From Candidatus Uhrbacteria bacterium RIFCSPLOWO2_01_FULL_47_17 (GTDB lineage: Bacteria; Patescibacteriota; Patescibacteriia; UBA9934; GWF2-40-263), in the NCBI GenBank assembly GCA_001791305.1, contig MGEI01000004.1:1-59100 (forward strand): a stretch of DNA of 59,100 nucleotides, given 5' to 3'. The notes under the pieces are model-generated. The model ran no database searches and was not told where the DNA came from. It saw only the letters and a program-made list of their open reading frames with translations. The translations under genes and the position numbers were made by a program. Shown one piece after another: positions 3,775 to 48,033 of the stretch. The first letter of the stretch is position 1, and each line of letters starts with the position of its first letter.

Positions 3775-4683
3775 TTATAATTCCGCAATAACCACTCGAT
3801 CATGCTTTTGTATATCCTTCTCAGTTCGCATGCTTGCCTCGGGGAAGTAGTGTTTGATGAGTTGCGTTGAACGATCGAGTTGATCGGGATCGATCTCGAT
3901 GAGCACCGTGATGTTTCGCGGAAGCAGGTCACGATGTTTTTTGCATTGTCGGAATAAATCCCAGTACGCATCTAATCCATCTACGCCTGCCACAAGCGCG
4001 CGTACAGGTTCAAAACGAACATCTGGATCGAGGACATCCATTTGGGATGTTGTGAGATAGGGAAGGTTTGCGCAGACGATTAAATCTTTAAACGGATATA
4101 CAGAGGAAATATTTGGATTCCCAGAAGCGCGAATCGTCTCGAAGAGATTTACGAGAGGCTCAAGAAGGGATCCGTGTTGAAAATCGATCTGTTCCTCAAC
4201 CGTGAACGTTTGTGCATTGCGTTTGGCGATCACGAGTGCGGATTGATCGACATCAATGGCAAGGACGGGGGTTTGTGTTTCTGCGGCGAGCGTGATCGCA
4301 ATCGCGCCTGAGCCCGTGCCGATATCCACAAAGAGGGTTTTGTCTCGGTCGCATGTTGAAAATACTTCGAGTGCCTGCTCAATCATGGTTTCTGTTGCGG
4401 GGCGCGGAATCAGGACGGATGGATCCACAAAAAAGTCGCGTCCGTAAAAACTCTTTTTGTTTATGAGGTACGCAACCGGTTCGCGTTTCATACGACGATC
4501 AACCAGAATAAAGAATTTCTCTTCTTGATGTGGTTTCAGGTCATCTGCAATGTGACCAAAGAGCCAGGACTTTGGAACATCCAAAACAGCCGCAAGCAAA
4601 AGTTCTGCATCGAGCATTGGGGATTCAATCCCTGTTTTTTTGAGTTTATTGTTGGCCCATTGGAGAGCCTCGAGAATCGTCAT
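3775..4683 (-). CDS. prmC: release-factor glutamine N5-methyltransferase PrmC/HemK
   Basis: SAM motif DIGTGSGAIAI and C-terminal DVRFEP..AL block. The catalytic tetrapeptide reads NLPY instead of NPPY. Confidence 0.85.
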   Translation of the reverse strand: MTILEALQWANNKLKKTGIESPMLDAELLLAAVLDVPKSWLFGHIADDLKPHQEEKFFILVDRRMKREPVAYLINKKSFYGRDFFVDPSVLIPRPATETMIEQALEVFSTCDRDKTLFVDIGTGSGAIAITLAAETQTPVLAIDVDQSALVIAKRNAQTFTVEEQIDFQHGSLLEPLVNLFETIRASGNPNISSVYPFKDLIVCANLPYLTTSQMDVLDPDVRFEPVRALVAGVDGLDAYWDLFRQCKKHRDLLPRNITVLIEIDPDQLDRSTQLIKHYFPEASMRTEKDIQKHDRVVIAEL

Positions 4684-4717
4684 GGGTTCTACAGTATGGT
4701 ATTTTTGAAATTTTTAC

Positions 4718-4746
4718 AAAAAAAAGAGAGACCCGCAAGGAGTCTC
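4718..4746 (-). terminator. intrinsic terminator
   Basis: Minus sense GAGACUCC-UUGC-GGGUCUC followed by a U run. Confidence 0.7.
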
Positions 4747-5477
4747 GAGAAGAGTGGTGAAAAAGGGTTCCTGCGAGCCCGGAGAGTTCCTGAGAGAGGC
4801 GTGGCTTGGTCGAGATCAATTACATGCTTTGGACTTGCGTCGTTGGGCTTGCAGATTGTAGGCTTCGGACTTGCGTCTTTCAGCTTCCAATTTTGGCGAT
4901 CAAGATTTTGTACACGCATCACAGAGAACTCTCCGGACTACACAACTCGACAACTTTGCTTTTGACAGCGAATCATCGAGAAAGTGGATGGACGAGCAAG
5001 CTCATCTTGTTGTTTCCGTGGGTTTTCAAGCCACTTCAACAGGGTTCGCATTCGCGGTTCAAGTCTTACGACTTTTGCTTGAGGCTTCCGTTGTCTTACG
5101 ACTCGGTGTATTCCTGGCGTGAACGTTGAATTTGAACGAGTTCCACTTTGGAGGTTGGCAATCATCTTGAACGATTCAGTCGGCAACGGTCGGAACCATC
5201 ATCGAGAATCTGAGCTTGCGCTCTGTCCAAAATAATTACCGGGTCACCAAGCTGAAAGCCAGGCTCAAGTGGTCCGAAGACCTTCGCACGAGCAAGCTCG
5301 CACTATTGGGAGTTAACTCTCCCGATTCGCTTTGACCGAAGTCTAGACGAATCACTTGTTTGGTCTAAGACCACGCAACGAGACGAGCTCGTTTGCGTTG
5401 TGGGTACTCCCACGATCCACCTCGACTCGCGCCGATTTGGATGCCAGGCTTTGTTCTTGCGAACGTCAGCTGAAGGT
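4718..5477 (-). ncRNA. candidate large structured non-coding RNA (unclassified)
   Basis: Bracketed by a TTGACG-N17-TATGAT promoter and an intrinsic terminator. No credible ORF. UUCG-capped hairpins and helices have G-U pairs only in the minus sense. Confidence 0.45.
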
Positions 5478-5483
5478 TTCACT

Positions 5484-5512
5484 ATCATAAAGCAATAAAA
5501 AAACAGCGTCAA
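5484..5512 (-). promoter_or_regulatory. sigma70-like promoter for the 4718-5477 unit
   Basis: Minus strand TTGACG (5512-5507), 17-nt spacer, TATGAT (5489-5484). A perfect DnaA-box 9-mer lies just upstream (5521-5529). Confidence 0.55.
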
Positions 5513-5519
5513 GCGCTGT
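5496..5519 (-). terminator. intrinsic terminator after the nucleotidyltransferase gene
   Basis: Minus sense ACAGCG-cuuga-CGCUGU followed by U7. Confidence 0.65.
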
Positions 5520-5588
5520 CTGTGGATAACTGATTTAATTCGCTTATTTAAGATGCGAATTAAATCATCCTGAGCTTGTCGAAGGATC

Positions 5589-6269
5589 TCATCCTTGCGA
5601 CGAAATTTTTTCTCGCACAAATTTTAACTCATCCGGAGTACCGATTGGATACCATTCGTGTGTCATTACGACATCGATTGGAAAATGTGCGGCACGAACC
5701 GTGAGTGTTTGCGGTAAACCATATTCTTCATGCGCGCTCCCTTGGATTTTGACGGGTTCGATGTCGAAATAGGTCTGATCGAGTACGTATGCACCACAAA
5801 CACGAAAGCTTTTCGTGTTTATTGATTCGGTTAAGCCGATAAATTTTCCATACTCGTCGAGCTTTCCACCGTTCATGAGGTGCATATTGGTCGGACAGAG
5901 CAAAATTGAAGTCGCATGTGTCAACATTTCGTCGAGTGCTTCTCGAGAATACAAATCATCGCCATTTACGACAAGAAATCTATCGTGAAGCTGATCACGA
6001 AGCAACATTATCGCTCCGCCCGTTCCGTCGAGAGGGTCTTGCGTGACGTATCGAACGGGAATTCCTCGATACACATCACCAATCTTCGCTTTGATTTGAT
6101 CGCCCAAATAATTCACAACAAGAAAAATCTCGTTGATCGCGTTTGGAAGCGCATCGAGCGTGTGTTCGATCAGGGTTTTATTTCCGATCGGAATGAGTGC
6201 CTTCGGAGTGGTGAGGGTGAGTGGTCGAAGACGTGTGCCAAGACCAGCCGCAAGAATAACGGCTTGCAT
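5589..6269 (-). CDS. sugar-phosphate nucleotidyltransferase (NTP_transferase family)
   Basis: N-terminus MQAVILAAGLGTRLRPLTLTTPKALIPI is the canonical G-rich nucleotidyltransferase motif. Confidence 0.8.
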   Translation of the reverse strand: MQAVILAAGLGTRLRPLTLTTPKALIPIGNKTLIEHTLDALPNAINEIFLVVNYLGDQIKAKIGDVYRGIPVRYVTQDPLDGTGGAIMLLRDQLHDRFLVVNGDDLYSREALDEMLTHATSILLCPTNMHLMNGGKLDEYGKFIGLTESINTKSFRVCGAYVLDQTYFDIEPVKIQGSAHEEYGLPQTLTVRAAHFPIDVVMTHEWYPIGTPDELKFVREKISSQG

Positions 6270-14727: not shown

Positions 14728-14780
14728 ATTTTCCAAAAAAGTGTTAAACTAGGCCGTGAGTTATCCACATTTTACTTGCA

Positions 14781-14814: not shown

Positions 14815-15825
14815 ATGCTTCGAGTCGCCATTAATGGTTTTGGTCGTATTGGTCGTGTCGCTCTTCGCGCGGCCTATGAACGAAAGGATCTTGAGATTGT
14901 CGCCATCAACGACTTAACGGAGCCGTCTATTCTTGTGCACTTATTGAAGTACGATTCCACGTTTCGTGTATGGGGTCATGATGTGAAGGCGGGGAAAGAT
15001 CATCTTGTGATCGACGGAGTGAAAATTCCGGTTCTTACAGCCATGGATCCCGCGACACTGCCGTGGAAAGATTTGAAGGTGGATGTTGTGATTGAATCAA
15101 CTGGACGTTTCACAAAAAAAGAAGATGCAGGAAAGCATATTACAGCTGGCGCAAAGCGTGTTGTGATCTCGGCGCCTTCTGAGGATGCGCCGACGTATCT
15201 TATGGGTGTGAACCACAAGCTTTGTAAAAAAACAGATACGGTTGTGAACAACGCATCGTGCACAACAAACTCGGCGGCTCCTGCTGTGCAGATTATGACT
15301 GAAACACTCGGTGTCAAAAAGGCGATGCTGACAACTGTACATTCCGTAACGGCAGAACAAAATCTTGTCGACGGTCTTCCGCCCGCTCGTCACCCAGATC
15401 TTCGTCGTGCGCGATCCGCTCTGATCAACATTGTTCCAACCTCGACCGGTGCGGCAAAGGCAACAACAGAGGTTGTGCCATCACTGAAAAACAAGTTTGA
15501 TGGAATCGCGATTCGCGTTCCGTCCATCGATGTTTCGCTGACAGATTTCACGTTCGTGGTTGGAAAGAAAACCAGCAAAGAAGAAGTGAATAAGATTTTT
15601 AAAGACGCGGCAAAGTCTCCTCGCTGGAAAGGGATTCTTGGAGTCACCGAAGATCCGCTTGTATCCACAGACTTTATTCAAACTCCTTTTGGATCGGTTA
15701 TTGATTTGCAAATGACACGCGTGGTTGATGGGGATCTCGTAAAAGTTCTCGCTTGGTACGACAACGAGTGGGGATACACGCAACGTTTGCTTGATCTGGT
15801 TCAATATGTTGGAAAATTAAAATAA
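14815..15825 (+). CDS. gap: glyceraldehyde-3-phosphate dehydrogenase
   Basis: INGFGRIGR, NASCTTN and WYDNEWGY motifs. Confidence 0.95.
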   Translation: MLRVAINGFGRIGRVALRAAYERKDLEIVAINDLTEPSILVHLLKYDSTFRVWGHDVKAGKDHLVIDGVKIPVLTAMDPATLPWKDLKVDVVIESTGRFTKKEDAGKHITAGAKRVVISAPSEDAPTYLMGVNHKLCKKTDTVVNNASCTTNSAAPAVQIMTETLGVKKAMLTTVHSVTAEQNLVDGLPPARHPDLRRARSALINIVPTSTGAAKATTEVVPSLKNKFDGIAIRVPSIDVSLTDFTFVVGKKTSKEEVNKIFKDAAKSPRWKGILGVTEDPLVSTDFIQTPFGSVIDLQMTRVVDGDLVKVLAWYDNEWGYTQRLLDLVQYVGKLK

Positions 15826-34172: not shown

Positions 34173-34255
34173 GCAAGGGGTGGGGTGTGGATAACCTCGA
34201 AAAGATCTGAGAGGTTGGAGGTTGATGAAAAATTTGTTATTGTGTCGGCAATCTT

Positions 34256-38790: not shown

Positions 38791-38885
38791 TATTGATACC
38801 GACAGGATAGTGAAGTTAATCACCTTAATCGTGTATCTATTACCTCATCAAAAAATATTTTTTTGTCAATAGTCGTTCTGTGGAT

Positions 38886-38911
38886 AAAAAAATCGAGCTT
38901 GATTGCTCGAT
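38886..38911 (-). terminator. intrinsic terminator after the small membrane-protein operon
   Basis: Minus sense AUCGAGC-aaucaa-GCUCGAU followed by U7. Abuts the stop codon at 38911-13. Confidence 0.65.
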
Positions 38912-47847: not shown

Positions 47848-47876
47848 TTGACATAAATCCAGCTTTCCCTTATTCT
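47848..47876 (+). promoter_or_regulatory. sigma70-like promoter for rplJ-rplL
   Basis: TTGACA-N17-TATTCT. Confidence 0.55.
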
Positions 47877-48033
47877 TTTCACAAATCCAATCGCCCAAGA
47901 CAGCAGGTGCCGCAAGGCATAAGTCCTGCCGAGGTGAAACGAGTGTCGAGTTTCGACATGTTTCATGTAGTCCTGGCGAAAAGCCCGGATTTTTTATTAA
48001 AGGTCGAAGACTCAAACATCGGATAAAAATACT
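47877..48033 (+). promoter_or_regulatory. rplJ 5' leader, probably structured (L10-leader-like)
   Basis: A ~155-nt UTR with hairpins (e.g. GCAGG..CCTGC) and a terminator-like CCTGGC-gaaaa-GCCCGG-T6 just before the start. Position is analogous to known L10 leaders. Confidence 0.35.

Follow-up and report, generated by a model that had tools for sequence, protein, structure and literature searches.

The large ornate non-coding RNAs (ncRNAs) of bacteria, among them the Rfam families OLE, ROOL and GOLLD, have been visualised by cryo-electron microscopy (cryo-EM) as RNA-only, homo-oligomeric assemblies (PMC12286853). Large structured RNAs that lack an assigned function are rare in bacteria, and the RNA-only architectures recently found for these three were unprecedented. 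This article examines a candidate of a similar kind from Candidatus Uhrbacteria (Patescibacteria). It lies on the minus strand of a 59-kb stretch of DNA (59,100 nt; the window) from Candidatus Uhrbacteria bacterium RIFCSPLOWO2_01_FULL_47_17, at 5477–4718, between an NTP-transferase gene (NTase) and prmC, and spans ~760 nt from its predicted start to the end of the terminator U-tract. An earlier note on this DNA had proposed an orphan promoter-to-terminator unit for a large structured RNA; almost all the elements it named were recovered at the positions given, and its proposal is supported. The reading favoured here, with a probability of about 0.72, is that the region encodes a highly structured ncRNA transcribed as a unit of its own, and that this RNA represents a previously undescribed family specific to Ca. 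Uhrbacteria. The literature searched contains no description of such an RNA, nor of any large, structured, function-orphan RNA in the Patescibacteria (Candidate Phyla Radiation, CPR).

Like OLE, ROOL and GOLLD, the Uhrbacteria RNA would be the product of an independent, non-coding, promoter-to-terminator gene of 0.4–1.1 kb with a lineage-restricted distribution. As in these families, covariation supports many of the helices, GNRA-type tetraloops are abundant, junctions are rich in A, and no biochemical function is known. Unlike them, it is found in Patescibacteria and not in Firmicutes, phages or rumen metagenomes, and it is not situated beside tRNAs, prophages or the genes for OLE-associated proteins. 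It is also far more variable: no resemblance in sequence can be recognised between subfamilies, although the accompanying PrmC proteins retain about 58–77% identity to that of the window.

The sponge RNAs CsrB and RsmZ, together with 6S RNA, offer a different parallel. Here the shared properties are hairpin repeats that vary in number (an 85–90-nt tandem module in the present case), fast sequence turnover with preserved architecture, and a strong, regulated promoter of their own, which for the Uhrbacteria RNA is a prediction. There is no recurrent loop motif such as the GGA of CsrB and RsmZ, the loops being generic stable tetraloops; and, in contrast to both CsrB/RsmZ and 6S RNA, domains are defined by long-range helices instead of being arranged as a string of beads, and no Rfam model matches. 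The layout of promoter, structured RNA, terminator and same-strand open reading frame (ORF) is that of attenuation leaders (riboswitches, T-boxes) and of the processive-antitermination elements nut/put and EAR, and a conserved element at the extreme 5′ end with a tetraloop hairpin after it is a further common feature. The Uhrbacteria RNA is, however, 3–10 times larger than attenuation and antitermination leaders, and has neither a conserved sensor core nor an evident antiterminator; in a further difference, the downstream prmC appears to have its own promoter.

DnaA-regulated promoters are known from the DnaA regulons of E. coli and B. subtilis. As in these, a consensus DnaA box, TTATCCACA, is found just upstream of a sigma-70-type promoter: all 19 of 19 homologous loci have a box (at most one mismatch, mostly perfect) no more than 150 nt upstream of the RNA start, where the background is 0.04 per 150 nt. 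The product in this case is a large structured RNA, there is no replication origin (oriC) at the locus, and binding of DnaA itself is predicted from sequence only.

The promoter in the window has the sequence TTGACG-17-TATGAT (5512–5484, minus strand) and agrees with the consensus at 10 of 12 positions. The perfect DnaA-box 9-mer (5529–5521, minus strand) ends 8 nt before the −35 hexamer, and occupies −52 to −44 relative to the predicted start. Both elements had been named in the earlier note and both stand. The arrangement of TTGAC(G/A), a 17-nt spacer and a −10 hexamer is conserved across all subfamilies of homologues (termed sub1, sub2 and sub3; see below); the box is found at −52 or −53 in sub1 and sub2, and between −53 and −96 in other loci, often as an inverted pair. 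Downstream of the promoter, a conserved 5′-terminal motif, ACCUUCAGC, is present at 5477–5469 (minus strand); its first A, 7 nt past the −10 hexamer, is taken as +1 (5477). The more general form ACC[GUA]UCAGC, with at most one mismatch, begins 7–8 nt past the −10 hexamer in sub1, sub2 and sub3, and also in the loci L009, L034 and L008, and presumably forms the 5′ end of the transcript.

Upstream, the promoter overlaps a terminator-like hairpin that ends the prfA/NTase transcript (5521–5501, minus strand). The RNA promoter takes its −35 hexamer from the loop and 3′ arm of this hairpin, and its spacer from the T-tract. Among homologues, the 5′ arm varies yet keeps its pairing with a fixed TTGACGCT. 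A similar arrangement may be noted at the other end, such that both termini of the RNA gene (5501–5521 and 4728–4746) appear to embed a promoter in a terminator, with the −35 hexamer in the hairpin loop and 3′ arm and the T-tract as spacer.

The window contains four perfect copies of TTATCCACA against an expectation of 0.25. All four are intergenic and lie 6–9 nt upstream of a −35-like hexamer. Besides the copy at the RNA gene, they precede gap (GAPDH, 14815–15825; box at 14761–14769, plus strand), lexA (34079–33441; box at 34186–34194, minus strand), and an unannotated unit at ~38.8 kb (box at 38879–38887, minus strand), which consists of an ORF without Pfam match (38823–38512) with a hairpin-rich leader ahead of it. 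This distribution points to a small, promoter-proximal regulon of DnaA or another transcription factor that may respond to replication or growth state. An oriC was ruled out: GC skew is uniformly positive over the 59 kb and only one or two boxes occur per locus, which is why the box is interpreted as the site of a transcription factor. The combination of TTATCCACA and promoter at the RNA, gap and lexA genes would give a starting point for understanding how transcription is regulated in these uncultured bacteria.

At its 3′ end, the unit is bounded by the strong intrinsic terminator that had been noticed before, GAGACUCC-UUGC-GGGUCUC followed by U8 (4746–4718, minus strand; stem 4746–4728, U8 4725–4718). 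A terminator is present 30–130 nt before the prmC start codon in every homologous locus except L014, where it is located further upstream, and is usually preceded by a C/U-rich tract across subfamilies. The terminator loop, which is invariant in sub1, includes a TTGCGG that resembles a −35 hexamer, and an A/T-rich hexamer follows 16–17 nt on. A candidate prmC promoter can thus be read at 4738–4693 (minus strand), with TTGCGG at 4738–4733 in the terminator loop, a 16–17-nt spacer, and TAAAAAT (4716–4710) and/or CATACT (4698–4693). No Shine–Dalgarno sequence precedes prmC, either in the window or in any homologue. In four loci (L007, L010, L013 and L031), an extended −10 element (TGnTAnnnT) ends 6–7 nt short of the prmC start codon, so that the prmC mRNA of these lineages may be leaderless.

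The absence of a recognisable ORF product, as previously noted, is confirmed: the longest ORFs on either strand encode 77–146 amino acids, and the six longest have no Pfam match. The pattern of change between homologues is likewise non-coding. Of 197 indel runs in pairwise comparisons, 170 are not multiples of three, most being 1–2 nt long, and close relatives differ by whole hairpins. Identity over aligned RNA columns is 0.69–0.80, whereas for the same pairs of genomes the four-fold degenerate sites of prmC are saturated, at 0.36–0.50. The gap is free of ORFs in all relatives that carry it, which speaks against the possibility, raised at the outset, of a decayed protein gene. A protein gene or pseudogene was also rejected by the lack of Pfam matches, by the non-coding indel pattern, and by a tblastn search with the two ORFs that can be called here in locus L008, which found nothing. 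The opposite-strand ORF of L008 (5238–5888) is probably spurious, because this locus carries DnaA boxes, a TTGACA-17-TAATCT promoter and the 5′ motif ACUGUCAGA. The RNA region of L008 also includes a run of 100 N (5461–5560).

Folding of the region is more stable than that of shuffled sequence, with z-scores of −5.1 for the minus and −4.0 for the plus strand. The minus-sense RNA has eight stable-tetraloop hairpins (a stem of 4 bp or more with a GNRA, UUCG, CUUG or UYCG cap), compared with 0.6 ± 0.9 in shuffles, one on the plus strand, and none or one in each of prmC, NTase and prfA; this is the densest minus-strand cluster of such hairpins within the window. The structure model was obtained from an RNAalifold consensus of eight close sequences and a constrained fold of the window RNA, projected onto a nine-sequence MAFFT alignment (A2). 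It comprises 232 pairs in 45 helices, and 84.5% of its 1625 cells are standard pairs. Compensatory pairs, in which both sides have changed and the pair is kept, number 55, whereas column shuffles give 27.0 ± 3.7 (0 of 500 reach 55) and slid registers, in which the 3′ partners are moved by ±1–3 columns, give 9–24; the covariation score is 0.150 compared with 0.03–0.055 in controls. The check for compensatory covariation that had been called for is therefore positive against both types of control. Taken together, the comparisons establish, at the level of aligned homologues, a secondary structure maintained by compensatory substitutions and a sequence under purifying selection, and hence a selected, structured, non-coding unit with a predicted promoter and terminator of its own.

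It had further been argued that G-U pairs fix the functional strand. G-U cells do outnumber A-C cells, at 127 against 85, but this discriminates only weakly, since 84.5% of cells are paired in the sense and 81.9% in the antisense direction. Folding of the antisense was likewise discarded as a guide to the strand, since RNAalifold gives nearly symmetric energies and pair counts. The strand assignment is based instead on the promoter, the terminator and the identities of the tetraloops.

The 14-bp long-range helix pairing 4926–4939 with 4776–4789, as seen earlier in the single sequence, corresponds to H37 (4944–4924/4790–4772, minus strand, as are all elements of the RNA), which is the best covariation-supported helix of the model: 7 of its 19 pairs are compensatory and 89.7% of cells are paired. 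Compensatory changes are also seen in H36, formed by CUCGAUGAUUCGCU and AGCAAAGUUGUCGAG (4980–4967/4960–4946; 4 of 13 pairs), H38 (4923–4912/4800–4791; 4 of 8), H34 (5034–5031/5021–5018; 3 of 4), H24 (5197–5195/5190–5188; 3 of 3), H13 (5303–5297/5292–5286; 3 of 7), and the terminator stem H45 (4746–4739/4734–4728; 3 of 7). Two UUCG hairpins, GGUC-UUCG-GACC (5282–5271) and GAC-UUCG-GUC (5343–5334), and the hairpin GGGAG-AGUUAA-CUCCC (5323–5308), all listed in the earlier note, are present. The short direct repeats are also genuine, and each unit proves to be a tetraloop hairpin (GAC-GCAA-GUC, AGUC-GUAA-GACU or GAGC-UUGC-UC). A hairpin proposed at about 5113–5145 found no support: AAAGUGGA (5149–5142) pairs over a long distance with UCCACUUU (4988–4981) instead, to give H26 (91.5% of cells paired), and this pairing is kept in homologues that are missing the ~150 nt in between.

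These helices organise the predicted RNA into domains. The 5′ domain (5471–5250) is closed by P1 (5471–5466/5255–5250) and holds a GCAA-capped hairpin (5464–5453); it also contains an 85–90-nt module of four hairpins in two tandem copies (~5444–5356 and 5355–5271). The module is duplicated in the window, L001 and L026, and the second copy is absent from L002, L003 and L028. An invariant GGUGACCCGGU precedes the central hairpin domain (5240–5157), which is built from the helices 5240–5235/5162–5157, 5230–5225/5172–5167 and 5197–5195/5190–5188, and a GCAA hairpin (5223–5212). The region enclosed by H26 (5149–4981) is a variable, dispensable insert with two GUAA-capped hairpins and one CUUG-capped hairpin; it is absent from L002, L003 and L027. 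In the 3′ domain (4980–4772), H36 is followed by the segment 4944–4772, which is closed by H37 and encloses the nested helices H38 and H39, plus two GAC-GCAA-GUC hairpins. The final segment before the terminator (4774–4747) consists of a conserved GCAGGAACCC (4774–4765) and an apparently single-stranded, U/C-rich, G-poor tail that includes an invariant UUUUCACC. A possible pairing between GGUGA (5248–5244) and UCACC (4760–4756) shows no covariation in sub1; the single compensatory change found in L031 is anecdotal. A candidate 11-nt GNRA tetraloop receptor (CCUAAG/UAUGG) was rejected as it is not conserved.

Alignment A2 shows little or no variation in the DnaA box, the −35 hexamer, the 5′ end of the RNA and the terminator. 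Conserved blocks within the RNA include GGUGACCCGGU, UCCAAAGUGGAA, CCACUUUCUCGA, GUCGAGUUGC and GCAGGAA, while whole hairpin modules are either present or absent. As judged from these alignments, the architecture is modular, with hairpins capped by GCAA/GUAA, UUCG or CUUG, A-rich linkers and long-range closing helices, and modules have been gained, lost and duplicated even among close relatives.

Homologous loci were collected by PrmC-anchored searches, which yielded 14 from genomes, 11 from metagenomes and nine from assemblies encoding close PrmC relatives. With nhmmer, the RNA is found directly in L001, L026, L028, L002, L003 (identical to L015 and L033), L029, L027 and L032, and partially in L030. 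Beyond these, loci with PrmC proteins 56–77% identical have an ORF-less stretch of 0.45–1.7 kb upstream of prmC. A syntenic RNA of 0.4–1.1 kb upstream of prmC thus extends across Uhrbacteria, and covariation is seen within each of three subfamilies. In sub2 (L004, L005, L006), 142 predicted pairs are 89% paired, and 31 are compensatory compared with 2–9 in slid controls; in sub3 (L011, L018, L012, L014, L023; ~1.0–1.1 kb), the figures are 337 pairs, 96% paired, and 31 compensatory compared with 3–7. Most gaps have an excess of stable-tetraloop hairpins on the prmC-sense strand, L011–L014 having 10–12 where about one is expected, and CGCAA, GCAAG and UUCGG are, after U-rich words, the most enriched 5-mers in nine representatives. 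Conserved helices are separated by long variable inserts. Locus L031 has a reduced RNA of ~0.36 kb; there, at 2270–2440, ~160 structured nt at the 5′ end are followed by ~180 nt of near-pure C/U sequence, poor in G, before the terminator. This tract resembles a Rho-utilisation or S1-binding tract.

The RNA is absent from L025 (PrmC 47% identical) and from the P0118 contig (54%), in which prfA, NTase and prmC are contiguous and synteny is otherwise identical; the RNA is therefore regarded as a lineage-specific insertion. Orthology of all the subfamilies is presumed from synteny and position, from the box and promoter, from the 9-mer at the 5′ end, and from a few short words in common, such as GAAAGACGC and YCCNNNGUGGAA.

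The 4227 covariance models of Rfam 15 include RNase P, tmRNA, SRP, 6S, group I and II introns, OLE, ROOL, GOLLD, HEARO, raiA and riboswitches. None matches the RNA in the window at its gathering score, in keeping with the earlier failure to place it by eye among classical families. At E ≤ 10, the region 4600–5700 gives only three chance matches to snoRNA/sRNA models, at 15–21 bits compared with gathering scores of 50–75, and at E ≤ 1 nothing is found in the RNA region of nine homologous loci. Several specific identities were also considered and discarded. ARAGORN detects no tmRNA in the window. A group I or II intron is not indicated by any Rfam intron match; the region is intergenic, has its own predicted promoter and terminator, and contains no intron-encoded protein. 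Membership of OLE, ROOL or GOLLD is contradicted by the absence of a covariance-model match and by the neighbours, namely rpmE, prfA, the NTP-transferase gene, prmC, and the DUF3048 and L25 genes. With respect to mobile or viral elements, neither a blastn comparison with phages and plasmids nor a pattern search through viral contigs returned a match, and the RNA is single-copy in the window. A resemblance to the 3′ end of 16S rRNA (AAGUCGUAA...GAACC, and UCACC plus a CU-rich tail) was dismissed as chance, no small-subunit (SSU) rRNA model being matched; by our own estimate, a 9-mer match between sequences of 760 nt and 1.5 kb is expected several times by chance. A hammerhead-like CUUGAUGAGAAAC in sub2 has no helix II and no Rfam match, and was also rejected.

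In principle, the same data could be accommodated by other types of element. The region might be a giant cis-acting leader of prmC, whose fold decides between stop and read-through at the 4746–4718 terminator; the decision could come from sensing of RF1, the ribosome or a metabolite, or from processive antitermination loaded at the 5′ motif and the adjacent GNRA hairpin. The succession of promoter, structured leader, intrinsic terminator and, 35–130 nt on, a co-oriented ORF is indeed the classical layout of an attenuator or riboswitch, and the RNA is co-oriented with, and directly upstream of, prmC in every examined locus despite extreme divergence. However, the whole neighbourhood is syntenic, so that fixed position alone is no argument for action in cis. 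The lack of a Shine–Dalgarno sequence before prmC, and the candidate status of its promoter, would suit a leader, whereas the extended −10 element 6–7 nt before the ATG in several lineages suggests that prmC has a leaderless promoter of its own. Likewise, the 5′ 9-mer followed by a tetraloop hairpin loosely recalls sites of the boxA/boxB type, but 0.4–1.1 kb is several times the size of any known leader, no aptamer-like core is conserved between subfamilies, and the terminator is strong (a stem of 7–8 bp and U8). Inspection revealed no conserved antiterminator and no convincing complement to the terminator arms, although no systematic search for antiterminators was made. On balance, a prmC leader is considered unlikely, without being far-fetched. 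A very unlikely explanation is that the function resides in the DNA or in transcription as such, the RNA body being a tolerated by-product, stable and inert, while a DnaA-controlled promoter between two terminator–promoter cassettes serves to titrate DnaA or RNA polymerase, or to keep prmC insulated from the prfA operon. This would account for the conservation, across subfamilies, of only the DnaA box, promoter, initial 9-mer and terminators, for the −35-like hexamers that both terminators appear to embed, and for lengths that range from ~0.36 kb (L031) to 1.1 kb (sub3). Within each subfamily, however, the body is conserved far above neutral sites, and compensatory changes in three subfamilies require that the fold as such be under selection; inert sequence of 0.4–1.1 kb is not what one would expect a reduced genome of ~1 Mb to retain, and in relatives that lack the RNA, prfA, NTase and prmC abut without need of an insulator.

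Similar considerations apply to identities of a more conventional nature. Patescibacterial RNAs are often divergent, and the size range and richness in tetraloops are reminiscent of ribozymes and ornate RNAs, so that a known class (RNase P RNA, tmRNA, group I/II intron, OLE/ROOL/GOLLD or 6S) might be represented here by a member too divergent for covariance models to recognise. This is highly improbable: no Rfam family comes up at E ≤ 1, either for the RNA region of the window or for those of the nine homologues, ARAGORN finds no tmRNA, and the region interrupts no gene and has neither flanking exon context nor an intron-encoded protein. Moreover, there is no universal core between the subfamilies, whereas the cores of RNase P, tmRNA and introns are invariant. 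A decayed pseudogene or remnant of a mobile element, for which ORFs of up to 146 amino acids and the status of the region as an insertion relative to more distant relatives might be cited, is effectively refuted by the lack of Pfam matches, frame-breaking indels throughout, the lack of similarity to the L008 genes at the same position, single-copy occurrence with no phage, plasmid or viral-contig match, and strong purifying selection together with covariation.

An independently transcribed structured RNA thus remains the preferred reading, and its mode of action may be outlined as follows. DnaA, or a factor that recognises the same DNA sequence, would control synthesis, such that the level of the RNA would follow replication or growth state; this step is proposed because no feature of the locus is better conserved than the DnaA box upstream of its promoter. 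The RNA would act through its three-dimensional fold, as a protein-binding or self-assembling scaffold, and not through linear sequence or as a ligand-sensing leader. This is suggested by the generic tetraloops, A-rich joints, long-range domain closure, the duplication and loss of modules, and the fact that no linear motif is kept between subfamilies. Finally, prmC would be expressed from its own short-leader or leaderless promoter, in which case the RNA would not be needed in cis. A separate transcript is preferred over a prmC leader because of the extended −10 near the ATG in several lineages and the TTGCGG in the sub1 terminator loop. The neighbouring genes for L31, RF1, PrmC and L25 suggest a link to translation termination or the ribosome; the hint is weak, because the whole neighbourhood is syntenic.

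A number of points weigh against this reading. Some concern the unity of the family: no internal k-mer of 7–9 nt is common to all subfamilies (k-mer intersection), and nhmmer profiles (--max) reach from one subfamily to another at no more than the promoter and 5′ end, the bodies being unalignable. In sub3, the 5′ motif is predicted to pair locally and not in a long-range P1, and a common architecture is not established. Others concern the structure, which for sub1 rests on nine sequences, eight of them close, and was derived partly from the window sequence and the MAFFT alignment, which favours it; the covariation statistics compare with shuffles and slid registers only and ignore kinship. The start site, the end and the expression of the RNA are all inferred, and a factor other than DnaA may bind the box. 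In addition, a trans-acting RNA that has a fixed partner would not usually change in sequence so rapidly, and the invariable place directly upstream of prmC also fits a role in cis.

A bolder proposal, held tentatively and at well below even odds, is that the locus represents a new class of giant, modular, fast-evolving ornate RNAs of one CPR lineage, switched by DnaA. Such RNAs might form an RNA-only or ribonucleoprotein (RNP) assembly, or an unprecedentedly large regulator, by which an ultra-small symbiotic bacterium would tie translation termination (RF1/PrmC) or the functioning of its ribosomes to its state of replication or growth. CPR genomes of ~1 Mb are under strong pressure to lose dispensable DNA, yet an RNA of 0.4–1.1 kb has been kept across the candidate phylum. 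The locus therefore offers a testable candidate for new RNA biology, be it a DnaA-regulon RNA, an RNP scaffold or an RNA assembly, and a defined construct for structural work and metatranscriptome mining.

The gene order on the minus strand of the window is rpmE (L31, 7743–7438), prfA (RF1, 7434–6271), the 226-amino-acid NTP-transferase gene (6269–5589), the RNA gene and prmC (4683–3775), with DUF3048 and L25 genes past prmC. The encoded PrmC is 89% identical to that of one Ca. Uhrbacteria metagenome-assembled genome (MAG), and its close relatives all come from Uhrbacteria/Patescibacteria MAGs. Across relatives the neighbourhood is syntenic, in the order S2 / L31-RF1-(NTase)-RNA-PrmC / DUF3048-L25-FtsW. 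The NTase gene lies between prfA and the RNA in most of these, but is missing in L027, L029, L006 and L034, and is therefore not an obligate partner of the RNA; L027 and L029 retain the RNA without it. No second copy of the RNA is present within the window. Between the NTase stop codon and the DnaA box, there is an AT-rich 18-nt inverted repeat (5531–5567) with 89% complementarity and a 1-nt spacer. It is partly conserved among homologues, and could be a protein-binding site or an additional terminator.

Elsewhere in the window, a GC-rich island at 1201–1800 (GC 0.59–0.62, compared with ~0.47 for the window) overlaps an ORF on the minus strand (1262–1744) that has no Pfam match, and the island has no Rfam match. 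ARAGORN finds neither tRNA nor tmRNA over the whole 59 kb. The sole match in the window at an Rfam gathering score is a ribosomal protein L10 leader (RF00557) at 47876–48004 on the plus strand, with 51.8 bits.

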